Positions 30,100 to 62,728 of a stretch of 64,000 bases of DNA are shown in pieces (the first letter of the stretch is position 1; every line of letters begins with the position of its first letter). The position numbers and the translations under genes were made by a program. The notes beneath the pieces are model-generated. The model was given only the letters and a program-made list of their open reading frames with translations, was not told the DNA's origin and made no database searches. Source of the DNA: an uncultured Bacteroidales bacterium (GTDB lineage: Bacteria; Bacteroidota; Bacteroidia; Bacteroidales; UBA932); the NCBI GenBank assembly GCA_937900465.1, contig CALCEJ010000155.1, positions 403-64,402 of the forward strand, in the 5' to 3' direction.

Positions 30100-30936
30100 C
30101 TAGGCGGCTCCTTCAGCATATTTCCACATAAATCCCCCGGTGCTTTGATAAGTGCCTGAGAGCACTTTGCAGATGCCGGAGTGGGAGATTCCGGTTGCCT
30201 TGGCGGCGTCTGAGATAGATGAGAAAGTCTTCACTATTTTCAGGTTTCCATCCTGGTCTTTTTCAAGCTGAACAACACCACGTTTGGCGGAACCCTTCTG
30301 TGCTTCCACCGCAGTCTTGTTCTCGTGGAGCACCCACCCCTTGATAGATTTGAGCTTTCCAGAAACCAGCTGGGAGATGGAGCCGTGGCCGACATTGAGC
30401 TCTTTCTCGCAGTCACGGTAAGATGCCCATACCTTCTTTTCTGTACCATTGTAGAGAGTGATAGACTTACTCCTGGGGTCAGGAGCCTTCTCCTCCTTGA
30501 TATCAGCAGGTTCCTCGATGCTGGGCGCAGGCGTTGAGGAGAGGAGGGTATCCACCACAGTTGTCCAATGGAGTTTGTCCATACGGAGTTCCTGGGTGAG
30601 GAGAGTGGGGTTGATGCCACTGCAAGCAGCAGCAAGATTGAATATCTCCTCATTGCTGAGCTTGTCGGAGAGAGAGGTCTTGAATACTTTCAGACACTGC
30701 CCGAATAAACCTTCCCTCTTGATAGCGGCGTTGATAACACTCTTCCATTCCTCTGCTGTGAGAACGGAAGAAATGCCCATCTTGCTGGAAATGAATGAGA
30801 ACACGTCTTCGGGATTGAACCCATTGGACTTGATAGAACTGGCCACCATAGTCTTGGCGGCGCCATCACCCTGGATGTAGGGGACTGCATCATAGCTCTC
30901 TTTGAGCGACTTGATGAAATTGTTTGAATTGAACAT
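30100..30936 (-). CDS. hypothetical protein with C-terminal NUMOD1-like DNA-binding repeats
   Basis: FSSISDAAKATGISHSGICKVLSG..TGGFMWKY and a second similar unit. Confidence 0.65.
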   Translation of the reverse strand: MFNSNNFIKSLKESYDAVPYIQGDGAAKTMVASSIKSNGFNPEDVFSFISSKMGISSVLTAEEWKSVINAAIKREGLFGQCLKVFKTSLSDKLSNEEIFNLAAACSGINPTLLTQELRMDKLHWTTVVDTLLSSTPAPSIEEPADIKEEKAPDPRSKSITLYNGTEKKVWASYRDCEKELNVGHGSISQLVSGKLKSIKGWVLHENKTAVEAQKGSAKRGVVQLEKDQDGNLKIVKTFSSISDAAKATGISHSGICKVLSGTYQSTGGFMWKYAEGAA

Positions 30937-31078
30937 ATCAAAAAGATTTTGTGTAAAAACTGAGTGCGATTTACAGGTATTTTCACAAAATCTTCAGGCA
31001 GCCAATATTGGGTGACAGAACAGAAAAGCCCCACCGCAAAGCGGCAGGGCGTGTCCTCCTAGTGTATTTATAATTGTG

Positions 31079-32140
31079 CTACAACATGAAATCCTCTTTA
31101 ATCTGAGCAATGATTTCAGGGGTGGTCTTCGCTATCCCAAATGGAGCACCTTTGAATCCCTCGATAGCAAAATCCTGTGCCACCAAAGGGTCTGCAACCT
31201 TGTCTGCAACAGCGTCTCGAATGTTGGTGAAATAGCCACGTAGTGTTTTTGTATAGGCATCAAAGGTGGTTCCTTCTGCATCCCGGATTCCTCCTGACTC
31301 CTTTTCGTTCTTGTCAGCAAAGGGCAGGCTAACATATATTCTCTTTGTGATTTCCCTGAACTCTCCAAAGGTGTCCTCCACGCAAAGACCATCCATGTAA
31401 AGGAGATAGGTGAGATAGACCGCTTTTTCTATTCCTGTCAAGTCCAGTTTATACTCTTCACCTTCAGCGACATAGATATCATAAGTGTTATACTCGATGG
31501 TTAGAGGGCGAAGATTATTTCGCTGCTTCTTGATAATCAGCTTATAATCAATACTCTTCCTCAAATCATTGGCGACCTTCTCCTTGATTCTGTCAATGTC
31601 CAGTTCTATCCCAAGGACAGCGCACTCCCTCAATATCTTCTCCAACTTCTTCTCCTCTTTTGCAATGAGTTTCTTTTCTGCCAAAGAACCCCTTTCCGGC
31701 TTGGCAATTTTGAGATCTATGTCAAAATCGCTATCATTTGATGTCTCGGACTCGGTAGGGAGTTCAATAACGATAGGAGAGGGAGGCCCCCATTTTTTAT
31801 CCTCATCTGAACCATACACAATTCTGGTAAAATCAGGGAGTGTGTCCGGTGTGCTGATGACAACCCGATCTTTTGCTTTATCCTCTTGGTGGATTCGTGC
31901 AGCGAGGTTCCCTGTCAGAATTTCGTTGTCTGTGGGGAATAAGTTCAGCTTAATTTTATCTACGTCTTCCCCCTGGCAGATTACAGGGAAACTGTCAAGG
32001 ATGTTCATTATGTTTAGGGCGATGGTCGCATTGATACCATCTCTGGGGATAAATAGGAAAACCTTACCTGGTTCCAGTTGGTAGAGTTCCTGTGGAACGA
32101 CATTGTTCAGGATATAATTTGAGAGTCTATCAGATGCCAT
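31079..32140 (-). CDS. hypothetical Bacteroidetes protein
   Basis: Long ORF; EKAVYLTYLLY.DG motif. Confidence 0.6.
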   Translation of the reverse strand: MASDRLSNYILNNVVPQELYQLEPGKVFLFIPRDGINATIALNIMNILDSFPVICQGEDVDKIKLNLFPTDNEILTGNLAARIHQEDKAKDRVVISTPDTLPDFTRIVYGSDEDKKWGPPSPIVIELPTESETSNDSDFDIDLKIAKPERGSLAEKKLIAKEEKKLEKILRECAVLGIELDIDRIKEKVANDLRKSIDYKLIIKKQRNNLRPLTIEYNTYDIYVAEGEEYKLDLTGIEKAVYLTYLLYMDGLCVEDTFGEFREITKRIYVSLPFADKNEKESGGIRDAEGTTFDAYTKTLRGYFTNIRDAVADKVADPLVAQDFAIEGFKGAPFGIAKTTPEIIAQIKEDFML

Positions 32141-32411
32141 AATTGTCTTAACGTTTGATTATAAAGTATTTATTGCGGAGAAGACTTCATCTATTATTTC
32201 ACCCATCCGGCTTTCTTCAAGACTTCGCCAGCGTTCACGCCTAAAACGCACATATGTAGTTATATGGTAATTGCTTCAAACCTCAAAGGTAGTAAAAATT
32301 CATGGGGATAGCAAAGGGAATGGTTGCCAATATTGGCTGCTCTGCCATTGGTATATATCCTCTCTAATTTTGCATTGTGGAACAAGGTGAAAACCATAAA
32401 ACTATCGGCTT

Positions 32412-33320
32412 ATGAAAGCAAAAGAATCAACAAAACTGGCTGTGATCGACAGCAACACGGGGATTGACTGGTATGGTCAGTCTTGGAAAGATAGGGAGTT
32501 CAGTCATGCTGAGAGAACCATCAGGGTGGGAACTGCATTTTCTGGCATTGGCGCCCCTGAAATGGCACTTGACCTGCTGGGAGTCAAGCACGAGATTGTC
32601 TTTGCGTGTGACATCAACAAGGCTGCAAAGAAGTCCTATCTGGCTAACTACAATGTCCGGGATTGGTGGGATGATGTGAAGGAACTGGATGCTACAAGGT
32701 ATAAGGGGATGATAGACCTCTTTGTGGCGGGGGTCTGCTGCCAGCCTTGGTCTCTTTCAGGGAAACTCAAAGGTTTGAAGGATGAGAGAGGTCAGCTTTT
32801 CTATCAGTTTGTCAGGGTGATTTGCGAGTGTGCGCCCAAGGTCTGGATTTTCGAGAACGTGGATAACATTCTGCACCACAGGAGCGAGATTGATGGGAAA
32901 GAAGTCCTCACGTGGCCTATTCTCCTCAACGATATGGAGACGTCTTTCACGGAAGCAGGACTCCACTACCACATCCACTATCGTGTGCTTGATGCAGCAG
33001 ATTATGGTGTTCCCCAGCACAGGGAGAGGGTGTTCTGCATCGGTTTCCTTGATGAGAGCGTCGATGACAAGGGTGATTTTCTTTTTCCCGCCCCTGTCAA
33101 GTTGGAAAAGTCGCTGTATGACTATTTGGACGATTTGACTCCCGGGAGGCGTTACCTTACGGCAAGGGAGAGGATTTCCCTGATGGGATTCCCCGGGACA
33201 TTCAAGCAGGTTGTGAGTGACGCCCAGTTCAGCAAGCAGGCAGGGAACTCCATTGTAGTGGATGTTTTGATGGCACTTTACAAGCAGATGGACATCACCA
33301 GGTATGGAGTTGAAGCATAA
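32412..33320 (+). CDS. C5 DNA cytosine methyltransferase with a very short variable region
   Basis: FSGIG, CCQPWS, ENV, PQHRERVF, LMGFP, QAGNSI motifs. Confidence 0.9.
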   Translation: MKAKESTKLAVIDSNTGIDWYGQSWKDREFSHAERTIRVGTAFSGIGAPEMALDLLGVKHEIVFACDINKAAKKSYLANYNVRDWWDDVKELDATRYKGMIDLFVAGVCCQPWSLSGKLKGLKDERGQLFYQFVRVICECAPKVWIFENVDNILHHRSEIDGKEVLTWPILLNDMETSFTEAGLHYHIHYRVLDAADYGVPQHRERVFCIGFLDESVDDKGDFLFPAPVKLEKSLYDYLDDLTPGRRYLTARERISLMGFPGTFKQVVSDAQFSKQAGNSIVVDVLMALYKQMDITRYGVEA

Positions 33321-33345
33321 GTTTAACTATTTAATAATCAACAAA

Positions 33346-33858
33346 ATGAAGCAGACAATGAATTATGATGGAATGAGCTACAATGAGCTTGTGGCACAGA
33401 AGATGGAGCTTGAAAACGCTATCAACAAGATGAGAGAACAGGAGATAAGGCGTGCCCTTGATGAGCTGCTGAAAACCTACTCGATAACCAAGGAGGAGAT
33501 GACGAGAATCTACTTTGGAGAGGAGGTTGCTCCTGTTCCTGTTTCTGTGGAAAAGACTGAGACAGAACTTCCTACAATGGCGGAACTGCTCTCTGATGTC
33601 CCTGAATACAAGGAAGTCTATAGCCTAAAATCGCCCAAGAAGAAGAGCAACAGGAGTCTCCCTACAATGGATGAGCTGCTCTCGGAGGAGCCTATCAACA
33701 GGATTCTGTGCTTGGGGAATCTGGAGCCCAAGGGAGCGCCGTATCGTCAGCATTCCAGAATCAACCACACCGATGGCATCATCCCTACCGAGACCGCTAC
33801 TGGAAAGACAATGGTTTATATCCCTCCCCGGAAACCTAAACCCACTATGACAGCATAA
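33346..33858 (+). CDS. hypothetical protein: H-NS-like N-terminal coiled-coil and MTase TRD-like C-terminus
   Basis: MSYNELVAQKMELENAI..TYSITKEEM; LGNL..Q.SRI...DGIIPT. Confidence 0.5.
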   Translation: MKQTMNYDGMSYNELVAQKMELENAINKMREQEIRRALDELLKTYSITKEEMTRIYFGEEVAPVPVSVEKTETELPTMAELLSDVPEYKEVYSLKSPKKKSNRSLPTMDELLSEEPINRILCLGNLEPKGAPYRQHSRINHTDGIIPTETATGKTMVYIPPRKPKPTMTA

Positions 33859-46469: not shown

Positions 46470-48251
46470 ATGGTTATGTACAGAAGGTTTTTAATGATTC
46501 TTGCAGCCCTCTGCGTGGTTTTCGCTTGTTCCAAGGATGACATCACGGGCTCGAGCAACAATACCGGAGCGGACGACAGTGCCGGGAGCACTATCGACAC
46601 GGACGCATCAGATGACTACGTCGCAAACACGACTTTTGCAGGCACCGTCACCGTAACTTATTCTTCCTCCAGCGCTACTGTATCAATAGGCAGCGGACTT
46701 ACCGCATCGGAATTTTCCCAGTCTGTCAGCGGCGCAGGCGTTACCATCACCTATAGCGGTACGGATAACGTCATCTACAAACTTACCGGAACGACATCGG
46801 ACGGCTACTTCAAGCTCTACAGTTCCAAAAAGCAGGAGATCCTCCTCGACGGAGTCAGCATCACGAACTCCAACGGAGCGGCTATCAACAATCAGAGCAA
46901 AAAGCGCACTTTCGTTGTCCTGAGCGGCACCAACAAGCTCGCGGACGGCGGCTCTTACAGCAATACCCCTTCGACTGAGGGCGAAAAGGCCGCCTTCTTC
47001 TCCGAGGGCCAGCTCATCTTCAGCGGAAGCGGCTCCCTTTCCGTCACTGCAAGCGGCAAAGCCGGGATCACTTCTGACGATTACGTCCGCTTCCTGGGCG
47101 GAACCATCGACGTTACAACGTCCTCCGGTCACGGAGTCCGCGGCAAGGATGCTATCATCGTAACTGACGGAACGATCGACGTTAACGTAACTTCCGCCGC
47201 AACCGGCAAGAAGGGATTCTCCTCCGATACCCTCGTTTATTTTGCGGGAGGTACGACCACAATCACCAATGCGGCCAGTGCCGGCACTGTTGACGGCGAA
47301 CTTACCGGATGTGCGGGCATAAAAGCTGACAAGCGCTTTGAGATTGTGGGCGGAACGCTTAATATCACCTCCACCGGAACCGGTTCAAAGGGTATCAACT
47401 GCGACAACGTGGGATACTTCACCGGCGGAACGGTCAATATCACCGTAACAGGCTCCAATTACGGCAACTCCTCCAACCAGGGAGGCGGTTCCGGTAACGG
47501 ATGGGGCGGTGGCGGAAACCGTCCGCGCAGCGTGGATGACGGCACGAAGAGTTCGGACACGTCAATTTCCTCCAAGGGCCTCAAATTCGACGGAAACATC
47601 TACTTCAACGGAGCCGATGTTACCGTAAAGTGCTCCAATCACGAGGGTATCGAATCCAAGGCGTCCATTACCGTAAACGGCGGATCCGTTTATAGTTACG
47701 CCTCCGATGACTCTATCAACGCGGCAAGCACCTTCACCGTCAACAGCGGTTACGTCTTCGGACAGTCCACCGGCAATGACGGAATGGATGCCAACGGTAA
47801 TTTCTATATCAAGGGCGGTGTGGTCTATGCAGTTGGCACAGGCTCTCCTGAAGTGGGCCTCGATGCAAATACCGAGGGCGGATACAAGCTCTATATCCAG
47901 GGAGGAACCGTTATCGCCGTAGGCGGTCTTGAGGGCGGGTCCAGCCTGTCACAGGGCTATGTCTCAGCCTCTGTTTCCTCCAACACGTCCTATGCGGTCG
48001 AAAGCGGAAGCACCGTTCTCGCTGCATTCAAGACTCCTTCAAGCCTGAGCGTGTCGAATGTTGCAGTCTCCTGCCCCTCGATGAAAAACGGATCATCCTA
48101 TACTTTCCTCTCCGGTGCGACTGTTTCCGGCGGGACCTCCTACTTCGGAGGACTGTATACGGAAGGAGCCACCGCATCCGGCGGCAGCTCCTCATCCCTG
48201 ACCGCAACCACAACCTCCTCCGGAGGAATGGGCGGCGGTGGATTCCGTTAG
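46470..48251 (+). CDS. beta-helix carbohydrate-binding lipoprotein (DUF4353/Cthe_2159-like)
   Basis: Lipobox; repeated GI.S/A..I.GG units, EGIESK, DGMDANG. Confidence 0.8.
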   Translation: MVMYRRFLMILAALCVVFACSKDDITGSSNNTGADDSAGSTIDTDASDDYVANTTFAGTVTVTYSSSSATVSIGSGLTASEFSQSVSGAGVTITYSGTDNVIYKLTGTTSDGYFKLYSSKKQEILLDGVSITNSNGAAINNQSKKRTFVVLSGTNKLADGGSYSNTPSTEGEKAAFFSEGQLIFSGSGSLSVTASGKAGITSDDYVRFLGGTIDVTTSSGHGVRGKDAIIVTDGTIDVNVTSAATGKKGFSSDTLVYFAGGTTTITNAASAGTVDGELTGCAGIKADKRFEIVGGTLNITSTGTGSKGINCDNVGYFTGGTVNITVTGSNYGNSSNQGGGSGNGWGGGGNRPRSVDDGTKSSDTSISSKGLKFDGNIYFNGADVTVKCSNHEGIESKASITVNGGSVYSYASDDSINAASTFTVNSGYVFGQSTGNDGMDANGNFYIKGGVVYAVGTGSPEVGLDANTEGGYKLYIQGGTVIAVGGLEGGSSLSQGYVSASVSSNTSYAVESGSTVLAAFKTPSSLSVSNVAVSCPSMKNGSSYTFLSGATVSGGTSYFGGLYTEGATASGGSSSSLTATTTSSGGMGGGGFR

Positions 48252-49786
48252 TTGGAAGCAGATTCTGCTTCCTCGAGAGCCTTACGGTTCTCTTCCAGAG
48301 CCTTTACGATGCCGTTCACGGACTCCAGTGCCGGGACGGCATCTTCAATTCCCGCGACCTCTGCCGCAGTGAAGAGTTTGCCGGCCTGGACCCAGTCTCC
48401 GGTGAGCGCATAGTAAATTCCCTTGGTGTAGAGTGCGACAGGGCTGTCGCCGATGCGGTGCAGATAGAACGCAGCGCGGTCCATACTGCCCAGTGACATC
48501 GCCGCATTGGCTGCATTGATGTTCACGATTTCATCGTCAGGGTAAACCCTTGCCGCAACGGAGAATACGTGATTGAACTCCCGGGAACCTACGTTATAGC
48601 CCTGGGCCGCGAGGAAGAACTCATTGATGGAGAGGTTCTGGGGCCTTGTCTCCATAATGCGCCTTGCATCCTCTGCGGTAGTGTAGCTCCTGACCGTGTA
48701 GCTGACCTTGTAGTCAGTGCGGCGAAGACCGGGGAACACTTCCTGGACAAGATACTTCCAGGCAGAGGGGTAGTTGCTCTTGATACGGGCTTCCTTCTTG
48801 TCGGGAGCGGCGTTGGAGTCGAGGATTGAAAGGACCTTTTCCCTTGAAGGGAAGTCCGGGTTCTGCTCGACTTCTTTCCTGAGGCCGTCCCAGTTCTCCG
48901 CTACGGATTCGGGGAGATAGATATCGTCCGGCAGTTCGTAAAGGCCGCTGACGTACTCCCTGATAGCCTCTGTCCTTGCGGCTGCGAGTTTCTCGTTGAC
49001 GGCATACGAACCGTCAGGAGAGGAATAGCCGCGGAGAATTATCCGGGTGATGGTCATATCGGCATCGTTACGGACGGAGTCCACCGTGGCGCGAATCTTT
49101 CCAAGCTCGGAGGCGTTGTTCTCATACGAGGGATCGACAGCCGTGCTGCCGGAAGCAAAGACGACGTAAGCCTCGCCGGAGATATCCCGTTCCTTCACCG
49201 TGGTCTCCGCATCCGGGAGGACGTAGATGTAGTGGGGGACGAACTCCGGAACGTTCACGAGAGCGGGTCCGGATGAGGGCTCCGGCTCCGGTTCCGGCTC
49301 CGGCTCGGGAATCCTGGCGCTGAGGATAGGGTGTCCGTGTGTGATACGGCCTTCCTTGCCACAGCAGTTCACCGCCTGGCGGTCGATGCGAAGCTTCGCC
49401 TCAGACATCCAGGGAAGATATCCCACGACGGCGATGTAGTGGACCGGGCTTGGGATATCCTTTCGGTAGAATTCCCATTCTTCCGGGCTGAACACGTCGG
49501 AACTCCTTTCCGCGCGTGCGCGGTGGTAGAAGTAGCCTCTTGAGTAGATTGTCGCGGTGGGAAGGACCGTGTAGTTGTTCCCTCCGAAAATGACCGGAGT
49601 GAAGTAGACGGCCTGATTCCTTTCAAACTCATATCTGGAGAAGTCGAGGTCCATCTTGACGACGAGATCCTCCCCGTCGTGGGCGAACTCGAGGTTCGTA
49701 ACGGCGACATCATTTGAATATTCCTGTCCCCTGAGCGATAAACAGAGGGCAAGAGCCGCAAATGCGATTGCTATTGTCTTTTTCAT
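48248..49786 (-). CDS. DUF3868/OmpA-like TPR protein of pilus loci
   Basis: GYSSPDG, LAAAR, ENWDGL, PGLRR motifs; PE linker. Confidence 0.82.
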   Translation of the reverse strand: MKKTIAIAFAALALCLSLRGQEYSNDVAVTNLEFAHDGEDLVVKMDLDFSRYEFERNQAVYFTPVIFGGNNYTVLPTATIYSRGYFYHRARAERSSDVFSPEEWEFYRKDIPSPVHYIAVVGYLPWMSEAKLRIDRQAVNCCGKEGRITHGHPILSARIPEPEPEPEPEPSSGPALVNVPEFVPHYIYVLPDAETTVKERDISGEAYVVFASGSTAVDPSYENNASELGKIRATVDSVRNDADMTITRIILRGYSSPDGSYAVNEKLAAARTEAIREYVSGLYELPDDIYLPESVAENWDGLRKEVEQNPDFPSREKVLSILDSNAAPDKKEARIKSNYPSAWKYLVQEVFPGLRRTDYKVSYTVRSYTTAEDARRIMETRPQNLSINEFFLAAQGYNVGSREFNHVFSVAARVYPDDEIVNINAANAAMSLGSMDRAAFYLHRIGDSPVALYTKGIYYALTGDWVQAGKLFTAAEVAGIEDAVPALESVNGIVKALEENRKALEEAESASN

Positions 49787-49798
49787 CTTTCCGGGGAT

Positions 49799-50437
49799 TT
49801 AAAACAGGTAAACGACAGAAAGGGCGAGGTGAGTCGGGCCCACAAAGTCGAAAGTCGAACGGTGGTCGTAGATGGGAGTGGCGCCTTCGGTTACGTCCCC
49901 TTTGGAGACGTAGTAGTTGCCGTTCTCATCCTGGGGAAGAAGGTACTCGGTGCAGCGGAGGTACATATAGCCCAGCCCGAATTCCGCCTCCAGGTTCCAG
50001 TGACGGCCCAGTATCCAGTCATAGCCTATTCCGACGCCGGCGGAAAGGAACTTTCCGTCAGCCATAAGGTATTTCTGGAAGTTCGGGAACTTGTGGTAAT
50101 ACTGGCTGAAATCCCACCACAGATGCCCCGCATCGATATTCATTCCACCCATCGCATAGGCCGATGCGAACCATCCGTTGAATCTTTCGCAGAACCAATA
50201 CTTGAGTTCCGGGCGGACGATAAGGTGATTCAGCGTGATGTCGTAAGCATCCCAGTTACGGTAGGAACCTGCAAGTTCCACCGACCAGTGCTGAGTGATA
50301 CCTACCTCCAGTCCGAGGTTCGCGGAAGCGGTGGCGTCGTGAAGCAGATTGGTCTTCACGGCCACCCTGTTCTGCGCTCCTGCCGCGACGGGCAGAAGGA
50401 GCGCAGCGGTGATAATCATCAATAGAGCTTTTTTCAT
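49799..50437 (-). CDS. DUF3575 outer-membrane protein
   Basis: AVKTNLL.D, NLGLE, KYWFCE.FNG, GPTHLALSVVYLF motifs. Confidence 0.88.
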   Translation of the reverse strand: MKKALLMIITAALLLPVAAGAQNRVAVKTNLLHDATASANLGLEVGITQHWSVELAGSYRNWDAYDITLNHLIVRPELKYWFCERFNGWFASAYAMGGMNIDAGHLWWDFSQYYHKFPNFQKYLMADGKFLSAGVGIGYDWILGRHWNLEAEFGLGYMYLRCTEYLLPQDENGNYYVSKGDVTEGATPIYDHRSTFDFVGPTHLALSVVYLF

Positions 50438-50438
50438 A

Positions 50439-50642
50439 TTACTCTCCGTCTTCAGGGGTGTAATCCGGATCTTCTCCGTCATTCCAACCGTCAGCGCTCA
50501 CAGAGGGGACGACCTGCCTCGCCAAAGCCTCCTCCCGGGCCCTTATTTCAAGGGCCTCCTCCGGGTCCATTGATTCCCGGCGGCAGGAAAGAGCGGAAAT
50601 CATAAGGATTCCCGTCGCTATTGCAAGTAAGAGTCTTCTCAT
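50439..50642 (-). CDS. small lipoprotein
   Basis: LSC lipobox; V.ADGW C-terminal pilin-like strand; in operon. Confidence 0.6.
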   Translation of the reverse strand: MRRLLLAIATGILMISALSCRRESMDPEEALEIRAREEALARQVVPSVSADGWNDGEDPDYTPEDGE

Positions 50643-50649
50643 AGGGCGC

Positions 50650-51882
50650 TTATTCGTTCTTCGTTACAACAAGTTTGTACCCGTCGTGGATGAACTTGAC
50701 GTGGTATGAACCATCCTCGGGATAGATGACCTTTTCGTCGTCCAGCCCGGTTCCGAGCACGATGTCAAGGGAATTCGGATCTGCGACGAGATAGCTTTCA
50801 GAGTCGAATTCTCCGAGTGCATAGTACATCCAGGCGGTAGCCATTCCGGCCTGCCTGTCCCATCCCTTGTCCCAGCGAAGCTTGAAAACGTTACCGGCGG
50901 CATAGGTGATGTCCGCTTCCCAGACGCCTTCCCAGGGCTCCGTGCCGGTGGAGGTCTGAGTCATATCGAAATCAGTGCTCCAGTCGCTGCCGTTCACGGT
51001 GCCGATGATGCTCCACACCGGGTCGTTCAGCTCATAGTCAAGGCTTCCGCCGTCTTCCCATCCGGTAACGGTGAAGGAGAAGCCGACGGCCTCCCCGTGC
51101 TCAGGATCCGGAGGTGTGACTGAAGGATTGAGGGTAAGCGAAGCCGTCGCTGCCGCTCCTGCCTTGAACTCGAAGGCCGATGCAAGGACGAACGTGAAGG
51201 TCTTGCCGCTTTCCGTCGTTACGACGATGCGGGGAGCCGCCTTCTGGGGCATTACAATGAGCCCATAGCTGTTGTCCGCGAGCTTCGTGGCCTCGACGTT
51301 GACAGGGCTCACGCCCTCAGTGCTGACAGAACCTTCTGAGAGGTTCAGCGTACCATTCATCAGGACTCCGTTGACGGAAACCTGGCTTACAGGGTCGTTG
51401 TCAAGTTTGTTGGTGACGTTTACGAAAATCTTCGAGAACGGATGTCTGAACTTCAGCGCCACGGTGGTATTGGGGGTTGCGTCAGCCGTTGCCGCCATAT
51501 ACAGGTTGTGGTACTCGAAATTATGGGCCCCTTCGTATAGAAGGTTGTACTCGAAGGTGGAGACAGTCTGGTTTTCGTCGGGGTAAATCGCGACGAAGTT
51601 GGTCTGTGTGGCCTGGTCCTTGACCCAGTAGATGGGCGAGGAGAGTTCCAGGCCGCCACCGGCGGTAACGGTTGCCGTTGCGACGGCGTTGATAGGCGTT
51701 CCGGCTATGATCCGGATCTTGTCGCCGGCCTCAAGGGACGATTCGGTCGCCCTGGTGAAGCCGTAGGTGTCGTAGGATGCGACGAATTTCACCTCCCTTG
51801 AGGACTCGCAGTCAAGGGCGTCGTTCCTGGAGCATCCGATAACCGCAGCCGCAATGGCGAGGATTATTGATATCCTTTTCAT
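50650..51882 (-). CDS. fimbrillin-family lipoprotein with C-terminal SusE/F-like module
   Basis: IGC lipobox, FTRA, FVAIYP, FRHPFSK, MPQ; WSIIG..WSTDFDM..FKLRW. Confidence 0.78.
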   Translation of the reverse strand: MKRISIILAIAAAVIGCSRNDALDCESSREVKFVASYDTYGFTRATESSLEAGDKIRIIAGTPINAVATATVTAGGGLELSSPIYWVKDQATQTNFVAIYPDENQTVSTFEYNLLYEGAHNFEYHNLYMAATADATPNTTVALKFRHPFSKIFVNVTNKLDNDPVSQVSVNGVLMNGTLNLSEGSVSTEGVSPVNVEATKLADNSYGLIVMPQKAAPRIVVTTESGKTFTFVLASAFEFKAGAAATASLTLNPSVTPPDPEHGEAVGFSFTVTGWEDGGSLDYELNDPVWSIIGTVNGSDWSTDFDMTQTSTGTEPWEGVWEADITYAAGNVFKLRWDKGWDRQAGMATAWMYYALGEFDSESYLVADPNSLDIVLGTGLDDEKVIYPEDGSYHVKFIHDGYKLVVTKNE

Positions 51883-51896
51883 AGAGCAGTGGGGGA

Positions 51897-53150
51897 TTAT
51901 TCAGCAGCGCCGTTACGGACGTACGAGAGAGCGAGGGTGCTGGAATTGAAGGTAACGGTATAGTTGCCGGATGTCTCGGGGAACTTGATGTTCTTCTGAT
52001 GGTCTCCGTCAGTCCCGAGAGTGTAAGGATCCGTGCCGATATTGTCGGAGCCATTCCACATACCGTAGTAGGTCTCTCCAAGACGGACCTTGAAGCCCTT
52101 TCCGGACTCGTCGTCAGTCATTGCTTCGTCATAGTTGACGGTAATGCTCCAGCTGTTCTCCGCCCCGGGAGTCATATAGTAGTAGGTCGCCCAGGCGTCA
52201 GCGCCCTTATCGTCAGTTGCATATACGCAGCCGCCGATCTGGACATAATTGCCCACGGTAGGGTCTCCGATGGTTCCCACGGTAGTTGCATCTCCGTCAG
52301 TCCAGTCGACAGTGTCGAAGGTGAGGGCGCCAACGGCGGTGCGTCCGCCGTCGATTCCGCCCACGGGATTGAGCGTGACGTTTGCGGTAGCGGTCTTTCC
52401 GGCCTGGAAGGTGTAGTCACCGGTGATGCGGAAGGTATAGACGGAACCAAGGGTGGTGGTTACGACGATGTCCATTGCTGCGGTTGCGGCCTGGGGAAGG
52501 AGGATGAGCTCGTAGCGGGTTGCGCTGGCGGCATAGGCGTGGACGTCGCTGTATGTGTCAGCGGCGACGATGGTTGCGGGAGCGGTCGACATATCGAATG
52601 TCGTGGCGTTGAGCTTGACCTGCTTCATTACTACGGAAGCGACGGCGTCGGAACCAAGATTGTTGGTGATGCTTACTACAACCTTTGCGAAGGGGTGCTT
52701 GAAGCTGAAGGCGACGGTGCCGGGATCCGGGGATGCGCTCTGGACTGCGGTCATCACATTTGCGTGATATGTGTATGTGTCTTCCGCGGTCTGGTCTTCG
52801 GGGATATTATAGGCTCCGCTGACGCCAGCGCCATCCGCATAAGGATAACGGGCCACGAAGGTTGATGCGGCGGACTGGCCTACACCCCAGTAAATCGTAG
52901 TTGAAGGGGTAAGCGTGCTGCCGGAAACCGTAGCCTGGACGTTGTTTGCGCCAAGGTCGGCGGCATAGATACCGACATTCGAGCACCCCTCCTCGCCCAG
53001 CTCGAGAGTTGCGCTCTTAAAGGAATATGTTCCAAGATTTTCGACCGTGAAACGCACGGCCCTCTGGCCCATTGAGGCCTCGTTTTCCACTTTGTTGCAG
53101 GCCACGAGGGCTGTGGCCAGGACTGCAACTGCAAGTAATGCTTTTTTCAT
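51897..53150 (-). CDS. fimbrillin-family lipoprotein with C-terminal CBM-like module
   Basis: VAC lipobox, FVARYPY, FKHPFAK, LPQ; GFKVR..NIKF..GNYTVTFN. Confidence 0.78.
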   Translation of the reverse strand: MKKALLAVAVLATALVACNKVENEASMGQRAVRFTVENLGTYSFKSATLELGEEGCSNVGIYAADLGANNVQATVSGSTLTPSTTIYWGVGQSAASTFVARYPYADGAGVSGAYNIPEDQTAEDTYTYHANVMTAVQSASPDPGTVAFSFKHPFAKVVVSITNNLGSDAVASVVMKQVKLNATTFDMSTAPATIVAADTYSDVHAYAASATRYELILLPQAATAAMDIVVTTTLGSVYTFRITGDYTFQAGKTATANVTLNPVGGIDGGRTAVGALTFDTVDWTDGDATTVGTIGDPTVGNYVQIGGCVYATDDKGADAWATYYYMTPGAENSWSITVNYDEAMTDDESGKGFKVRLGETYYGMWNGSDNIGTDPYTLGTDGDHQKNIKFPETSGNYTVTFNSSTLALSYVRNGAAE

Positions 53151-53170
53151 CGTGTTTATGGTTTTAAGTG

Positions 53171-56100
53171 TTAATTAAGTTCAAATACTACGGAGCTGTA
53201 GCCCGGGAGGGTTACGGTTGCTCCGTCGGAAATATTGCCGCTGACGGAGACGCGGCCGTTGGAGACGAGGATGTTGTCATTTGATACGTTCTCGCCCGGC
53301 CAGCGGGTTACATCAGTGGTGTAGGAACTGAAGTTGTGAAGGACGAGGACGACTTTGTCGCCGTCAACCTGGTGGAGGTACCATCCGGCAATGTGCCCGT
53401 CGTAGCCTCCATAGGTGCGTTCATCGGCTTCAGGCCAGCCGTTCGCGAGGGCGGGGTTCGTGTTCCTCGCATAAGCGAAGTGGCGGTACAGGCTCAGCAG
53501 GGAGGTCTCGTCATCCTCCTGGGATTCGACGCTTATCGATGCGGTAAGCATATTCCAGTCGACCTTGTTCGAGACGCCCTTCGAGGCGGCGCTGGAACGG
53601 GACGGGGTCCACAGGATGGGCGTACGGACGTACTCGTCGCCGCCGGCCTTTGTGCCCCAGTAGCCAAGCTCCTCGCCCTGATAGATGTAGGGCCTTCCGG
53701 CAGCCGTGAGAAGCACTGCCGCGGCCTGACGGATCTTGGGCTTGTAGTTGCCAAGGCTGGACGCGGTGCGGTCCTCGTCGTGGTTTGCAAGCTTCGGGGT
53801 GGAGATCGCATCGGCCCGATAGGCCCTGTGGCCGTTCCAGCGGTAAGGCAGTGAGCCGGGGAAGTGCTGGCCGTAGCCGGCGTTATGGATTGTCTCGCCG
53901 TTGAGGCAGTTCCTCAGATCCCACCAGAACTGGAATTCGAACAGGGCGGGAAGGCCGGAGTAGAACGGCGAGCAGTCGCCGTCGCCGGAAAGCACTTCAC
54001 CGACCATGAATATGTTCTCGTCCACGATTCCGCTGAGGCCGGCGCGCTTATCGGCATTGGCCTTGTAAATCTTGTTGCACTCGTTGTAGAATGTATTCCA
54101 GAAGGTCTTGTTCTCCGGGCCGGTTTCGTTGGCGTAGATATGCTTTACCGCGTCGAGGCGGAATCCGTCCACGCCCATTCCGAGCCACTTTTCGACGCCC
54201 GTCATTATCGCCTTGAAGGCGGGGCTGGAGGCACACTGGTCCGCTTTTCCGTAGTTGAAGTCCACGAACATTCCGGTGCCGAATTCGGTGTAGTAGAAAT
54301 ACATTTCCCCTCCTGGCATAACTATGTTCTGGACCGCATCGCTTTCGCCGGAATAGAGGGTATGGGCCTCGCCGTCCTTAAGCTGGTCGCCGCTGCCGTT
54401 GAATCCCCACTTGGTGCCCTTTGACCAGTCATCGGCCTTGGTCGTACGGATAAGGCAGCCCCAGTCGGACTCGAAGTCCAGGATGAGCCTGTACTTGTTC
54501 GTTCCGTTGTCGTAGAACTGGGTGTAGGTGCTGTTGCCCCAGAACAGGTAACGGGCGGGATTGTTGGTCGTTCCGCTTGTCGTGGGGGCTTCAGTCGTCT
54601 TCGACACCGTGATTGTCGGGGCCGATGCGTTCGTCCAGTCGAGGTCTATCTTGAAACGCTGTTTTCCGCCTCCGCCAACAAGGACCGGGAACCACTTGTA
54701 TCCGTTGTAACCGAAGCTTGCGGGAATCTGGTCGATCTTCCCGGCCTTGATGTCAGCTTCGGGAGTCTTCGTGATGGAATAATAGTCCCAGTACTCGCTC
54801 TCAGGACCCTTCTTCTTTATGTCCAGGAACCATTTGTTCTGGTCGCCGGAATGATTCATCACGTAGTCCATATAGATGCGGATATTGTGCTTATGGGCCT
54901 CCGTGATAAGGTTCTGGAAGTCTTTTTCCGTGCCGAAGCGGGGATTGACCGCCTCGTAGTCCGTGACGTCGTAGCCGTGGTAGGACTGGGCCGGCTGGAT
55001 GGGGGAGAGCCAGAGCGCGGTGACGCCCATCCTGTCGAAGTAGTCGAGGCTCTGGGTTATTCCGTTGAAGTCTCCGTAGCCGTCGCCGTTACTGTCCTTG
55101 AAGGAGAAGACGTTCACCTGGTAGGTGATGCCTCCCGCCTTGTTCCCGACAGGCAGGGATTCGTCGTAGGTGCCCCCGAGATAGTAGTCCGGCCTTCCGT
55201 CGGCCTCGTGGGTCCACTCCGTTCCGGCTTCGAGGACATACAGGATCTTGTTTTCCGCGGAGAGGTAGATGTCGTATCTGCCGCCGGTCGCAAGCTTCAT
55301 ATTGCCGGCACCCTGGGCGACGTCCGTCTTCGCTCCGACGGTTATCGTGTTGCCGCTTTCACTTTCCGGCCCGTAGCCGAAGTTCGTACCCCAGCTGCGG
55401 TTCTGGCGGAACTTGAACATTTCGCCGGCGGCGATTTCCAAATCGCGCGCAACCTCCCAGTACCCTTCCGTGTCCATCGGGAAATCGACGTTCCACTCCG
55501 TTCCGCCGATGGTGCCGATTATCGTCCAGGAACTGCTTCCGAACTTGACTTCCACGGGCTCGACGCCCTTTCCGGAGACTCCGGGGTCGGAGGGATCCTC
55601 GACGGCGGTGAGTGTTGTGCCGTCCCACGTGAAGTAGAGGCTGGAGTGTATCGTCAGGTCGCTCCAGAGGGGATCCTTCTCATCCGGCTTCGGGTATTGA
55701 TTCCCCTTGCCGTCGTTCAGGATAAGGTTGATTCCGCCCACTCCGCTGAAGCCTGCGGCCTCCCAGTAGGTGTAGAGGTAATCGCCGAAGGATTTCGTTC
55801 CGCCGGCGTAGGTTCCGGGCCAGGCGCCGTAAGGCTGCATTCCGCCGCCGTCGCCAACATAGGCATACATATACGGGGTTGTCCAGGTGGAATTGTTCAG
55901 GACGTAGATCCTGGTGTTTTCGCCTTCCTCCTGCTCGTTCGTCGCATCGCCGTGGGCAAAGACGTCTCCGGCTTTTTCGACGTAAAGGATCATAAAGTTT
56001 GGCTGGACGTAGAGGTCGTAGGTGCCGGGACTCAGCTTGATGTTGCCGCCGTCGTCGGCAAGGATGTACTTCTTGTCGAGGGAAGGATTTCCGCTTCCGG

Positions 56101-56713
56101 CACCGAGGTTCGTCGCCCAGTCGCCGTTCATCCTGAACTTGAACTCCTCGCCGGAAGCGACCGTGACGTCGAACGCCGCCATCCAGCCGCCGGGCTCTCC
56201 GAGCATAGGGATGTCATCCCCGCCGGAGCCCCAGTTAAGGCCCATAATGGATCCGGTGACGCCCCAGTTCGTAGTTTCCGTAAACTCGCTCCTGTCGATG
56301 ACCTGGCCGGGCTCTTCCTTGGCGCCTGCGGCCGCTTGGGAGACGGGGAGGTCAACTGAGACGGACGGGTCTGATTTCAGAGCGATGCGGAGAGTGGTCT
56401 CGCGGGGATCGTCGCTGTCGTTGGAAGGGGCGACGGCGGTGACGGTCGTCGTGCCGCTGCCCTCGGCGGGGGACAGTTCAAGCCAGTCTGCCTCGCACTC
56501 CGCGGCCCAGATTTCCTCTGAGGTCACGGTGAAGGTCTTCGTTGCTCCTTCTCCGACAAAGTTCAGACGCACGACGCTGGTCTTGATCTTGTCTGCGCCG
56601 GGGACGACCGGATCGTCCGTGTTGTCGGGCTCATCCCTGCGGCAGCCGGCAAGGACCGTCAAAATGCAAAGTGCAGCGGTTGAGGCTGCCCTTGAAAAGA
56701 ACTTGCAGTCCAT
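53171..56713 (-). CDS. GH13 alpha-amylase lipoprotein (SusG-like) with BACON and starch-binding modules
   Basis: DSNGDGYGDF, LWLSPI, YHGYDV, DYVMNH, GFRLDAVKH, VGE, NHD, YQGEELG motifs. Confidence 0.92.
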   Translation of the reverse strand: MDCKFFSRAASTAALCILTVLAGCRRDEPDNTDDPVVPGADKIKTSVVRLNFVGEGATKTFTVTSEEIWAAECEADWLELSPAEGSGTTTVTAVAPSNDSDDPRETTLRIALKSDPSVSVDLPVSQAAAGAKEEPGQVIDRSEFTETTNWGVTGSIMGLNWGSGGDDIPMLGEPGGWMAAFDVTVASGEEFKFRMNGDWATNLGAGSGNPSLDKKYILADDGGNIKLSPGTYDLYVQPNFMILYVEKAGDVFAHGDATNEQEEGENTRIYVLNNSTWTTPYMYAYVGDGGGMQPYGAWPGTYAGGTKSFGDYLYTYWEAAGFSGVGGINLILNDGKGNQYPKPDEKDPLWSDLTIHSSLYFTWDGTTLTAVEDPSDPGVSGKGVEPVEVKFGSSSWTIIGTIGGTEWNVDFPMDTEGYWEVARDLEIAAGEMFKFRQNRSWGTNFGYGPESESGNTITVGAKTDVAQGAGNMKLATGGRYDIYLSAENKILYVLEAGTEWTHEADGRPDYYLGGTYDESLPVGNKAGGITYQVNVFSFKDSNGDGYGDFNGITQSLDYFDRMGVTALWLSPIQPAQSYHGYDVTDYEAVNPRFGTEKDFQNLITEAHKHNIRIYMDYVMNHSGDQNKWFLDIKKKGPESEYWDYYSITKTPEADIKAGKIDQIPASFGYNGYKWFPVLVGGGGKQRFKIDLDWTNASAPTITVSKTTEAPTTSGTTNNPARYLFWGNSTYTQFYDNGTNKYRLILDFESDWGCLIRTTKADDWSKGTKWGFNGSGDQLKDGEAHTLYSGESDAVQNIVMPGGEMYFYYTEFGTGMFVDFNYGKADQCASSPAFKAIMTGVEKWLGMGVDGFRLDAVKHIYANETGPENKTFWNTFYNECNKIYKANADKRAGLSGIVDENIFMVGEVLSGDGDCSPFYSGLPALFEFQFWWDLRNCLNGETIHNAGYGQHFPGSLPYRWNGHRAYRADAISTPKLANHDEDRTASSLGNYKPKIRQAAAVLLTAAGRPYIYQGEELGYWGTKAGGDEYVRTPILWTPSRSSAASKGVSNKVDWNMLTASISVESQEDDETSLLSLYRHFAYARNTNPALANGWPEADERTYGGYDGHIAGWYLHQVDGDKVVLVLHNFSSYTTDVTRWPGENVSNDNILVSNGRVSVSGNISDGATVTLPGYSSVVFELN

Positions 56714-59175: not shown

Positions 59176-59272
59176 GCACAAGGTCTGATTTCACGCCCGA
59201 CACCTTGTGCGCTTTTTGTCCCCAGATACCCTTTTCCGCACAAGGTCCCCCGCCTATAATCAGACCTTGTGC
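59176..59272. repeat. REP/MITE-like nested palindrome, copy 2
   Basis: GCACAAGGTCTGATT / AATCAGACCTTGTGC; same 97-bp span as 15814-15910. Confidence 0.8.
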
Positions 59273-59322
59273 AAAAAAGCCACCCCAGAAGGAGTGGCTA
59301 AAATAAACGAGAGGATATTACA

Positions 59323-60627
59323 TTAAAGATTTGCCCCCCAGATATCTCTGTTAATAGTTACACCACTTTCATTCTTGGACTCCCAGCCAGCATTACACTC
59401 GTTGTAAAAGCGGTACTTAACGGTCTTTGTGCCATAAACGGAAGTGGCGAATTCGTAGTAAAAAATGTAGCCGTTATTGTCGGCATTCCTTTCTTGAATT
59501 GCGTTGGTATCCGGAGTTGATAGTCCATCCCACGTGACAAATTTAACCACGGAAGTCCCCGAACCCTGAGTTTGCCATATTGTCCATTGGCTATCGCTCA
59601 TATATACATAGATCCTGTATGTGGTTTTCAAAGAGCTTTCGGTTGTATCAAAAGTAAAGTCGCGATAGAGCCAAACGGCATCTGAGGCAGACACATAAGT
59701 GCCGTTTTTGAATACTTGCAAACAAACGGGATCACCTGTTTTTGACCAGCTCAATGTCGGAAGAATACACCACTTTGTGGTGCCGTCAGAAAGGACGTTG
59801 AGTGTAAGGTAGGACTTGGTTTCATAGTTGATGGTAGAGCCGTCTGTTGCGAAGAAACGTGCTTCGTCGACCTTGTCGTCGTCGTTGAATACAAAGATAT
59901 GACCGTCAACATCCACCGGCTTCATATTCTTAATTGTTCCTGCGGTGAAGGACTTTGCTGAAGTGGTGGACTTTGTTGCGATGTCATTGCTGTTGTCATC
60001 CTGAACGGACACGGTGAAGGTGGTCGTAGAGGCATCAACAGGAATATATGCAACGACAGTTCCGCGGGAGCCGAGGGAAATGCCAGAAACCGTCACGTCA
60101 TTAACGTCTCCGTCAAAAACCACCTTGTTCGCAAACGTAGGCACATTCGTAAACGTTACCTTCAGGAGGGCGTTCTGATGGCTGAGGGTCACAGCGTTGT
60201 CGGATATGGTTCCGGACATCCTGATTGCATCGGCACCAAGTGCGCCGGCGAGGCTGGCGATTTCGGTGGGGAGAGCGGTGTCGCTGAAGTCTGCGGTATA
60301 AGGATATTTTACCTCAGCGGGGGTGCCGTTCATCGTTCCGGTATAGGTGAAGCGGGCGGACTGGCTTCCGCCGGTTTCGGCAGTGAACTGGTAGACATCG
60401 CCCGTGGTGGTCTTAACAGCGATAGCGTCGCCAGCAGTCCAGGTGAAGGTTCCGTCAGTGCTAGAGATTGCGGCTTTGGTGTCAGCGTCGACAAGGTCCG
60501 GGATGGACACGAAGAGTTCGTGAATGTCCGATCCGTTGGTGGCGGCGAGGTCATCATTGATGCTGGCCTCTTTTGCGCAGGAGGCAAGGGCTGCGACGGC
60601 AGCGAGAATGTAGATGTACTTTTTCAT
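59323..60627 (-). CDS. fimbrillin-like lipoprotein
   Basis: LASC lipobox, DTKA, WTAGDAI, YPY, HQNALLKV motifs. Confidence 0.72.
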   Translation of the reverse strand: MKKYIYILAAVAALASCAKEASINDDLAATNGSDIHELFVSIPDLVDADTKAAISSTDGTFTWTAGDAIAVKTTTGDVYQFTAETGGSQSARFTYTGTMNGTPAEVKYPYTADFSDTALPTEIASLAGALGADAIRMSGTISDNAVTLSHQNALLKVTFTNVPTFANKVVFDGDVNDVTVSGISLGSRGTVVAYIPVDASTTTFTVSVQDDNSNDIATKSTTSAKSFTAGTIKNMKPVDVDGHIFVFNDDDKVDEARFFATDGSTINYETKSYLTLNVLSDGTTKWCILPTLSWSKTGDPVCLQVFKNGTYVSASDAVWLYRDFTFDTTESSLKTTYRIYVYMSDSQWTIWQTQGSGTSVVKFVTWDGLSTPDTNAIQERNADNNGYIFYYEFATSVYGTKTVKYRFYNECNAGWESKNESGVTINRDIWGANL

Positions 60628-60646
60628 AATCGTTCCGATTTTAGTA

Positions 60647-60787
60647 TTACCAATCCTCTTCGCTGCTGTCCCATCCAGAGACATTTCCTCCTCGTACGGT
60701 TCCTACGGATCCGTCCAGGAAATCCTTTTCGAAGCGAACCTCCGTCATCTCAGTGACGGGCGCGTCGTAGCTTTGTTTTTTGTCCAT
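60647..60787 (-). CDS. 46-aa small peptide preceding a fimbrillin gene
   Basis: Own translation MDKKQSYDAPVTEMTEVRFEKDFLDGSVGTVRGGNVSGWDSSEEDW. Confidence 0.72.
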   Translation of the reverse strand: MDKKQSYDAPVTEMTEVRFEKDFLDGSVGTVRGGNVSGWDSSEEDW

Positions 60788-60858
60788 AGTGTTATAATTT
60801 TTAATTTGTATTTTCCTTTTCTCCGTCCCCCGCAGCTTTTCTCCGTCCCCGCAGCGGA

Positions 60859-61014
60859 CTTTATCTTGCTGCTAATGATTTGGCTATCAAACGCCACAAA
60901 TGCAACAAATGCCAAATCCTTGCAAATATAGCATTTTCTCCCAAAGATTATCCTTTTTTCTGAAAGAAAAAGCTCATCCCCCTTGATATTCACACCCTTA
61001 GCAGCAAGATAAAG
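60859..61014. promoter_or_regulatory. Putative invertible promoter
   Basis: IR CTTTATCTTGCTGCTAA 60859-60875 / TTAGCAGCAAGATAAAG 60998-61014; TATATTTGCA on the minus strand at 60921-60930. Confidence 0.75.
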
Positions 61015-61041
61015 ACAATATAAACACAAAATGATAACACG

Positions 61042-61176
61042 ATGAAAGAAAAAATGTTTTACACAGCTCCTGAGATGGAGCAAGTGGTGGTTAAAGCAGA
61101 GGTTAACTTCCTGACTAGCGGATCAGCTTCCGTAGAAACTCTTAATAAAGTCGACGGATCTTGGGACGAGGATTAA
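61042..61176 (+). CDS. 44-aa small peptide preceding a fimbrillin gene
   Basis: Own translation MKEKMFYTAPEMEQVVVKAEVNFLTSGSASVETLNKVDGSWDED. Confidence 0.72.
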   Translation: MKEKMFYTAPEMEQVVVKAEVNFLTSGSASVETLNKVDGSWDED

Positions 61177-61197
61177 CAGATTAAAGTGAGAACAACT

Positions 61198-62361
61198 ATG
61201 AAGAAGTATTTGCTTATAGCTGCAGTCTGCCTTATTGCAGCGTCTTGTCAAAAAGAAGAAGGACAAGAACATAGGGGCTTGTCTCTTTCTGCTAGTCTTG
61301 AACAGACATCCAGCGTGACAAAGGCATCTCTTAATGACAGTCGCCAGACGCTTTGGGCTACGGGAGACGTCATTCGTGTCTACGTGGAGAACGATGCCGG
61401 TAACTGGCATACTAATGCCCCGTTCAATCTTACTTCCGGGGATGGAAAAACCAATGCGGTCTTTACCTGTGAAACTGATTACAGTTCCGGAAATAAGTGG
61501 AACGTAGGAGCCTTTTTCCCTTATTTTGAGCAAAGTGCAGGTAACGGAAGCAATATTAGCTCCGGCAATATGTATTTCTATCTTCCTGAGGGCTACTATG
61601 GCTACACTACCGGGAAAACATACCTGCCATTAATTGCCGATATGAGCGGAGGTTCCACGCAGCCTACAAGTATCTCCTTCAAGCACGTCGGCGGTGCTGT
61701 TGTCCTGAATCTCACAAATGTTCCTGGACCGGCACATTCAATAGGTATGACCGTTTCCGGCAAGAATGTATTTGGATGGCTTGGATCTGTGGCGGTGGGA
61801 GACGCCGGATCTGCTTCCGGAATCCTGACTGCATCCAGCGGCACGAATAGCACTGTTTGGCTGAATTTTGATGAAAACGGTTCCACGCCTCGCTCTTTCC
61901 AGTTCGTGTTCCCTGTCCCGACGATCAGTTCATCGTGCGACTATTCCTTCTCAATGTATGACAAGAACAACTTGAAGATTTGGAGCAAGACTGCATCAAG
62001 CCAGCCGGCTATAGGTCGTGCTGAGGCTTTGGTTATGCCGGATAAGGCAGTTTCTCCTGTCCCTCAGGAGATATATCTTGCCGGATATATCAATGGTGAA
62101 GATAAATATCCGACGTCCGGAAATGATCTCAAATTTGTGGATGGAACGCTGACCGTCAGTTTGACACAGGACAGTTATGTTTTATTGAATAACAATAGCG
62201 ACAAAAGGTATTTGTTAAGCGCATACAGCGAATCAACAGACCCGGTAACATTCAGTGTAGATAATGAAAATTACGATTATAAACTGAAAGTCCCGAGTGG
62301 AACCAGGACATTTACTCTTACGTATAATTCTGATGGATCTATTACGCTTTCATACGTATAG
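61198..62361 (+). CDS. fimbrillin-like lipoprotein with C-terminal CBM-like module
   Basis: AASC lipobox, VTKA, WATGDVI, FFPY, FKHVGG; IYLAGYING. Confidence 0.72.
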   Translation: MKKYLLIAAVCLIAASCQKEEGQEHRGLSLSASLEQTSSVTKASLNDSRQTLWATGDVIRVYVENDAGNWHTNAPFNLTSGDGKTNAVFTCETDYSSGNKWNVGAFFPYFEQSAGNGSNISSGNMYFYLPEGYYGYTTGKTYLPLIADMSGGSTQPTSISFKHVGGAVVLNLTNVPGPAHSIGMTVSGKNVFGWLGSVAVGDAGSASGILTASSGTNSTVWLNFDENGSTPRSFQFVFPVPTISSSCDYSFSMYDKNNLKIWSKTASSQPAIGRAEALVMPDKAVSPVPQEIYLAGYINGEDKYPTSGNDLKFVDGTLTVSLTQDSYVLLNNNSDKRYLLSAYSESTDPVTFSVDNENYDYKLKVPSGTRTFTLTYNSDGSITLSYV

Positions 62362-62387: not shown

Positions 62388-62416
62388 CGGCCATCCTTCG
62401 GGGTGGCCGTTTTTTT
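62388..62416 (+). terminator. Intrinsic terminator
   Basis: CGGCCATCC-TTCG-GGGTGGCCG followed by a T-run. Confidence 0.8.
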
Positions 62417-62728
62417 GCGGAGGGTGCGCCGGCGGTTTACGGAGGGTGCGCCGGCGGGTTGGGCCTTGCGGAATGTCAACGGGCAGTTCTGCGTGCGGCG
62501 AGTGAGAGATTTGCGGAAGGTCTGATCAAAGGTGACAGACCTTCCGCGGGGGAAAGGCCGTGGAGGTGTGTCTGGCCGATGGTGTTTGCGGAAGGTGTGC
62601 GGGATTTGAGCAGACCTTCCGCAAACGCATGCAGACCTTCCGCGGCGATGGAGGGTGACTCTCTGCGTGGTGGAACTCTTCGCGGCGATGGAGGGTGACT
62701 CTCTGCGTGGTGGAACTCTTCGCGGCGA
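62414..62728. repeat. Intergenic repeat cluster (GCGGAAGGT/ACCTTCCGC palindromes, 40-bp tandem duplication)
   Basis: 62641-62680 equals 62681-62720; CGGAGGGTGCGCCGGCGG x2. Confidence 0.8.

Follow-up and report, generated by a model that had tools for sequence, protein, structure and literature searches.

Which of two small operons standing head to head does a gut bacterium read, and can the choice be reversed by turning round the DNA between them? The locus that raises this question lies at 59323 to 62361 of a 64,000-nucleotide (nt) stretch from an uncultured Bacteroidales bacterium (assembly GCA_937900465.1, contig CALCEJ010000155.1, positions 403 to 64,402), which is called the window here, always at its full length. 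Each operon encodes a small peptide followed by a lipoprotein, and a segment of 122 base pairs (bp) framed by inverted repeats lies between them. We confirmed that this segment inverts, with crossover at the repeats, and that both orientations occur in populations. We also consider it probable, from the organization of the locus, that inversion of a shared-promoter segment lets the cell change from one to the other of two predicted pilin-like lipoproteins, which differ in their C-terminal domains. The features on which the argument turns are the following.

60859 to 60875, plus strand: left inverted repeat, 17 bp, crossover site, CTTTATCTTGCTGCTAA
60876 to 60997, no strand assigned: invertible segment, 122 bp, found both ways round (flipped contig of metagenomic run X7, four junctions of run X9)
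60998 to 61014, minus strand: right inverted repeat, 17 bp, crossover site, exact reverse complement of CTTTATCTTGCTGCTAA
60923 to 60930, minus strand: predicted Bacteroidota -7 promoter element TATATTTG, by motif and genus-trained matrix
59323 to 60627, minus strand: left lipoprotein, 434 amino acids (aa), predicted type V pilin module (about residues 30-245) plus C-terminal domain
60647 to 60787, minus strand: small peptide of the left operon, 46 aa, YxxP family, no match in Pfam or NCBIfam
61042 to 61176, plus strand: right small peptide, 44 aa, YxxP family, 32% identity to the left peptide
61198 to 62361, plus strand: right lipoprotein, 387 aa, predicted type V pilin module (residues 23-290) plus C-terminal SusF/X25-like beta-sandwich (about residues 290-387)

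An earlier note on this DNA had described a perfect 17-bp repeat around 122 bp with a minus-strand -7 element, and all of its coordinates were reproduced. The feature is a short repeat-flanked segment of the kind that marks Bacteroidales invertible promoters, and its repeat is longer than chance would give: in 2000 Markov shuffles of the intergenic region no repeat as long as 17 bp arose (the maximum was 14), and none of 20 whole-window shuffles gave a repeat longer than 13 bp. Moreover, a match to TATCAA 9 nt inside each repeat arm extends the similarity of the arms. No further copy of the repeat, at up to three mismatches, was found in the window, and by DNA search it was absent from five genomes searched and from 401 genomes of the genus (Cryptobacteroides), where three weak partial matches were seen. 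A relaxed 8+8 form of the repeat pattern matched in 27 of the 401 genomes, and since none of the matches listed extended to the repeat they were set aside as chance or coding matches.

The inversion was looked for in 6 of 16 listed runs, all of them examined as metagenomic contigs from mixed communities; runs X1 and X2 belong to study P1 (possibly the source of the window), X4 to P2, X7 to P3, X8 to P4 and X9 to P5. Both orientations were present together in four of the six runs (X1, X2, X4 and X9), which come from studies P1, P2 and P5. In X7 a single contig of 3967 nt carries the inner segment reversed between both flanks, with the joint 60876/60998 on opposite strands. In X9 four 43-nt junction contigs represent all four junctions around a single inner contig of 156 nt, with depths of 18 and 21.6 for the assembled state and of 52.7 and 49.5 for the flipped one, and the loose ends agree with the window. 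Two assembled-state junctions (depth 9 and 10.4) and one flipped junction (10.4) were found in X4, and junctions of both states in X1 and X2, while X8 gave the assembled state only and X7 the flipped state only. At positions 60921, 60934 and 60971 three different inner haplotypes (C,C,A; C,C,T; T,T,T) were found among X1, X4 and X9, each of them in both orientations, which indicates repeated flipping and is hard to explain by two fixed lineages. The earlier note had proposed a search for both orientations, and they were thus recovered within single runs and in several haplotypes. The one metagenome contig found with the paired repeat (L082) shares 100% identity with the window over 2480 bp, and we did not treat it as independent evidence.

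When the segment turns, what would it switch? The element TATATTTG is the sole strict TAnnTTTG between the two peptide starts and lies inside the repeats, so that by its motif, too, the feature resembles a Bacteroidales invertible promoter. Its distance to the left peptide start is 135 nt in the assembled orientation; once the segment is turned, the right peptide start would lie 91 nt away. We scored candidate promoters with a matrix trained on 260 intergenic versus 281 in-gene TAnnTTTG sites from the deformylase loci of the genus; a sigma-70 promoter scan is unsuited to Bacteroidota promoters. The inner -7 element had the top score on either strand within 60560-61260, at the 42nd percentile of the 260 promoter-like genus sites. 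The best-scoring predicted promoter thus lies inside the repeats and faces left, in agreement with the earlier proposal that the assembled orientation drives the left operon, and the 122-bp segment is likely to carry the sole promoter of both head-to-head operons. We infer mutually exclusive expression from the anatomy of the locus, and we hypothesise that random flipping of the segment is the work of a site-specific recombinase whose gene lies elsewhere, such that the left operon would be read in the assembled orientation and the right operon in the flipped one. In this way a population could hedge between two adhesins of the tip type, which might serve to bind different substrates or to evade phage.

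The mirror-image arrangement of a peptide and a lipoprotein on each side, also part of the earlier description, holds, although the label "fimbrillin-like" given there to the lipoproteins does not find a Pfam Mfa_like_1 match at E<=0.1. Curated fimbrillin profiles (Pfam Mfa_like_1, NCBIfam) matched neither lipoprotein nor any of 58 relatives, and the family may be too distant for them; because Pfam finds no fimbrillin match, the case for pilins is built on searches by profile and by fold. The two lipoproteins are 25% alike in sequence, and an alignment of their family profiles covers the N-terminal ~245-290 residues (hhalign 100% probability, E 7e-45). The cysteine C17 of a lipoprotein signal peptide is invariant in both family alignments, with LPAM_1 falling below its cut-off on the left protein. 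For the right lipoprotein, a profile search matched 4k4k (E 1.8e-6), and the predicted model, with a predicted local distance difference test score (pLDDT) of 89.8, aligned with 3ufi over residues 23-290 (Z 10.7). Of its Foldseek matches at E<=1e-3, 12 out of 13 are titled Bacteroidales fimbrial, adhesion or adhesin proteins, which we take to be type V pilins. Its C-terminal domain resembles SusF (Z 9.8, root-mean-square deviation 2.2, 91 aligned, residues 257-387) and Sca5 X25-2 (Z 8.7), and is predicted to be a glycan-binding, starch-module-like domain. For the left protein the model is reliable in the N-terminal module but not beyond it, and fimbrial proteins again rank first, with weaker and more mixed matches; the alignment of the left protein found no solved relative by sequence. 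A CBM26-like left C-terminal domain (Atlas scores 0.86-0.87) is a lead only. Taken together, the models predict that both lipoproteins carry the two-domain beta-sandwich type V pilin fold, the left one less clearly, and the C-terminal domains differ, as had been suggested.

The layout is found elsewhere in the genus. Homologues of the two lipoproteins occur in 67 and 60 of 251 genomes, mostly as single operons without repeats, and in the genome contig collection searched no relative of the right lipoprotein was found. From tables of peptide-profile matches in 175 distinct genomes we picked out divergent pairs by eye. At least four have short gaps (up to ~520 bp); this is a lower bound, since one table listed 150 out of 349 matches, and the re-run took in 13 of its 50 genomes. 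Three of these four carry a repeat:

G157 divergent pair: 15-bp repeat, 187 bp inside, encloses the gap's only strict -7
G238 divergent pair: 18-bp repeat, 226 bp inside, encloses the gap's only strict -7
G307 divergent pair: 12-bp repeat, 258 bp inside, encloses the gap's only strict -7

Repeats of at least 12 bp were thus present in 3/4 short-gap divergent pairs versus 0/31 non-divergent peptide upstream regions (Fisher p=6e-4; p=0.01 with repeats of at least 15 bp), a count that excludes the long-gap divergent pairs G098:C3, G238:C39 and G238:C3 (1.2-3.5 kb, with genes between). Shuffles never reached the repeat length of G157 or G238 (0/2000 and 0/1000), and the 12-bp repeat of G307 is weaker. 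The repeats of the window, G157, G238 and G307 are unrelated in sequence, and no exact copy beyond the pair itself was found in the genomes of G157 and G238.

A second design is seen in G098, G101 and G069 (loci at G098:C3, G101:C19 and G069:C2, our L184, L192 and L226), with a tyrosine recombinase of ~307 aa beside or between peptide and lipoprotein cassettes and with repeats formed by the 5' coding sequence of the peptide genes themselves, at which the contigs of G098 and G101 break. The same ~307-aa family lies between divergent paralogues, SusC-like by eye and with inverted 5' ends of up to 101 bp, at three further loci (L213, L214 and L218), which are probably susC shufflons.

As for the enzyme, the earlier note had remarked that no recombinase gene is adjacent, and indeed the nearest ones in the window, an integrase (21071-22432) and a serine recombinase (22881-23612) in an apparent island, are ~37-38 kb away. 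The repeat of G238 has the form CCGC-N8-GCGG, and an arm-spacer-arm form of this kind is expected of a tyrosine-recombinase site. By analogy, a tyrosine-type recombinase acting in trans is the most likely flipping enzyme, favoured because of this arm-spacer-arm site and of the precedent of distant action by BF2766 (PMC4747536, PMC12940148). Genome-wide action like that of Mpi finds no support in two related genomes, G157 and G238, where the equivalent repeats lack additional exact copies. A weak lead for the trans-acting enzyme is the ~307-aa tyrosine recombinase family, one G157 copy of which adjoins apparent type I restriction genes.

Several observations weigh against a two-way pilin switch, and some of them suggest other explanations. 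The 43-nt junction contigs hold 13 letters on each side of the repeat, below our 31-letter bridging rule, under which the flipped state is bridged by the X7 contig only, and contig depth is not the share of cells. The two orientations might belong to co-resident strains, fixed after rare recombination at the repeats and with no ongoing phase variation; such an origin would fit data consisting of metagenomic contigs, one run with the flipped state only (X7) and one with the assembled state only (X8), the coexistence of strain variants in X1 and the lack of an adjacent recombinase gene. We find this very unlikely, given that both states share one inner contig in X4 and X9, that each of the three inner haplotypes has been found in both states, and that X7 and X8 are low-depth assemblies, contigs being prone to drop rare variants. 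With regard to the promoter, the inner -7 element is not outstanding (16% of in-gene control sites score as high) and has no TTTG at the canonical spacing of 19-21 nt. At the same time, a second strict TAnnTTTG, TAGCTTTG, overlooked by the earlier note, lies outside the repeats at 60768 on the plus strand and faces the right operon. The segment could accordingly invert as an ordinary ON/OFF switch of one operon, with the other having a fixed promoter, for example this one, or being silent, and the comparable Bacteroidales pilin switches described in PMC12940148 are ON/OFF. We nevertheless judge it unlikely, since the 60768 site lies in the left peptide coding sequence, has G+C-rich DNA upstream and scores -13.6, under every cross-validated positive; the remaining sites outside the repeats reach 5.4 at most, compared with 12.7 for the 10th percentile of the positives; and the one-promoter layout recurs in three other genomes. 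In the recurrence itself, the G019 divergent pair has no repeat, the G157 segment holds a weaker site on the opposite strand (score 16.6 versus 24.0), and for G157, G238 and G307, which share the repeat-flanked layout, inversion is predicted from that layout. On the protein side, the operons have no stalk or anchor pilin genes, and modelling gave no confident fold for the left C-terminal domain (pLDDT <50).

The products also admit a different account, in which the switch works as described but makes glycan-binding lipoproteins that act singly at the surface, with the pilin fold as their stalk, and not pilus subunits. Each operon has one lipoprotein and no stalk or anchor pilin gene; the right C-terminus is a SusF/SusE/X25-like domain; and the tails of the relatives range from ~380 to >1,000 aa, some matching CBM26 (3/58) or X25 (2/58). 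On the other hand, K42, the basic residue in a TKA motif, is nearly invariant in the alignment, and we take type V prepilins to be cleaved at a basic residue such as this, while the two Mfa_like_1 genes ~6 kb away could supply a shaft. We regard such lipoproteins as a serious possibility, somewhat short of an even chance and compatible with either/or switching at this locus. Concerning the enzyme, the ~307-aa family is present in 2/3 repeat-bearing genomes versus 29/151 genus genomes, which is not convincing. The island serine recombinase, acting in trans, might instead flip the segment, and a 13/17 match to the repeat does occur at 24055, ~440 bp upstream of the gene, among GCAGCAA repeats. 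This is highly improbable: by hand calculation, chance alone would give ~1.6 such matches in 64 kb, and three were seen, the protein scores 77.5 against the Mpi family, whose cut-off is 272, and the gene sits in an apparent mobile island. We keep to the proposal of a shared promoter that is turned between two pilin-like lipoprotein operons.

How does this proposal compare with known systems? Invertons upstream of fimbrillin genes are known (PMC11892184, PMC12940148). The promoter of the Phocaeicola vulgatus Mfa1 type V pilus (BVU2677/BVU2684) is an ON/OFF invertible one, and in the Bacteroides fragilis IVp-II system the tyrosine recombinase BF2766/Tsr19 acts in trans (PMC12940148, PMC4747536). 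Both resemble our locus in having a short repeat-flanked promoter upstream of type V pilin genes, flippable by a distant tyrosine recombinase, but they are described as ON/OFF with a shared motif, TACTTNNNANGTAANNGAA, whereas here an operon lies on both sides; by eye, the window repeat does not match that Tsr19/BF2766 motif (PMC12940148). Either/or choice by inversion is described for the Bacteroides thetaiotaomicron BT1032-BT1053 shufflon with its recombinase BT1041 (10.1101/521070), where, as would be the case here, one expression site is moved between alternative surface-protein operons of a Bacteroidales species. Unlike our locus, that shufflon has its crossovers inside susC-like genes and its recombinase in the locus; here the crossovers are intergenic, the promoter alone would move and no recombinase is near. 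The integrase-bearing loci of G098, G101 and G069 appear closer to the BT1032-BT1053 type than the window locus does. A crossover in a coding 5' end and a recombinase in or beside the locus, which characterize shufflons of the BT1032-53 or mba type, are absent from the window locus, with its junctions at intergenic repeats.

Further afield, inversion drives alternate surface lipoproteins in Ureaplasma (mba/UU376, UU172/UU171), Mycoplasma bovis (vsp) and M. agalactiae (vpma), according to PMC3047005. These systems, too, alternate oppositely oriented surface lipoproteins through short-repeat inversion, and in vsp and vpma a silent gene is joined to a single active promoter, much as we propose. 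They belong to another phylum, and in Ureaplasma it is a shared 5' coding end that moves and yields chimeric proteins, whereas the proteins predicted here are complete. In the Campylobacter fetus sap locus, in work by Dworkin and Blaser in 1996, a single promoter on an invertible segment reportedly serves alternative surface-protein genes; that segment is said to span several kilobases with long homologous 5' regions, unlike the 122 bp and 17-bp sites of the window. What would be new here is a minimal promoter-only switch, likely productive both ways, since invertible pilin promoters and either/or inversions are already known. In the literature searched, available in part, we found neither a promoter-only both-ways switch in Bacteroidales nor any Cryptobacteroides inverton, although key genome papers or supplements may catalogue one; the portions accessed of PMC13648699, PMC10939037, PMC8375218 and PMC13114119 do not describe a both-ways promoter.

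Three further features belong to the two operons:

60820 to 60858, minus strand: 5' leader of the left operon, in which an imperfect ~19-bp tandem duplication varies between strains
59278 to 59299, minus strand: intrinsic terminator-like hairpin closing the left operon, 9 pairs, 6 of them G-C, with a T-run
62388 to 62409, plus strand: intrinsic terminator-like hairpin closing the right operon, 9 pairs, 7 of them G-C, with a T-run

The leader duplication is missing in X4 and X8, where 19 letters are left out at 60828. Related palindromic repeats resembling repetitive extragenic palindromes (59176-59272 and 62510-62643) flank the two-operon unit, and a further one lies at 15810-15914. In X1 and X7 the 3' end of the left gene (59298-59643) is replaced by 664 other letters, so that strains swap the C-terminal domain of the left lipoprotein. 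In X9 the right operon diverges from the window inside the peptide gene, at 61092, just past the VV codons; this is near where the peptide-internal repeats of G098 and G101 lie, and possibly reflects cassette exchange at the peptide. The peptides themselves form a family of 37-60 aa with an acidic, Trp-containing tail, encoded mostly directly before pilin-like lipoproteins and found in most genus genomes searched (for example 48/50), with up to ~19 per genome and no match in the Pfam and NCBIfam libraries.

Next to the locus are genes for a tRNA-editing domain protein and a peptide deformylase. The relatives of the deformylase are from ruminant-gut Bacteroidales, the best being 52-70% identical, so that the species of the window seems to be absent from the relatives listed, and 3/80 records are titled Candidatus Cryptobacteroides. 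The two Mfa_like_1 genes lie at 48248-56713 together with DUF3575 and OmpA/DUF3868 genes, and a 1180-aa lipoprotein, amylase-like by eye, adjoins them. The apparent island (21071-33858) holds, besides the integrase and serine recombinase, apparent DNA methyltransferase genes and three copies of a 12-bp repeat (23847, 23926 and, inverted, 24071) that suggest a resolution site.

Invertible promoters of gut Bacteroidales have mostly been described as ON/OFF switches, either/or choice being usually made by shuffling of coding ends. A 122-bp promoter that works both ways would, if true, come close to the minimum size for a binary choice between two complete operons. Surveys of invertons that score only ON/OFF would misread such loci, at which assemblies also break. 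As the orientation can be read from metagenomic reads, the choice of adhesin could be tracked against diet, gut site and phage pressure without culture. The lineage is widespread in the rumen, where attachment to feed particles matters, and is known from metagenome-assembled genomes, and the layout recurs across the genus with unrelated repeats. More speculatively, and with considerable doubt, we suggest that Cryptobacteroides has repeatedly built promoter-only either/or switches between cassettes of a peptide and a tip pilin, each with its own unrelated repeats and no adjacent recombinase, which would imply a trans-acting invertase whose specificity is unusually relaxed or quickly retargeted. 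Together with the swapping of C-terminal domains, such switches could amount to a genus-wide toggle of glycan attachment, with the small peptides as part of its machinery.

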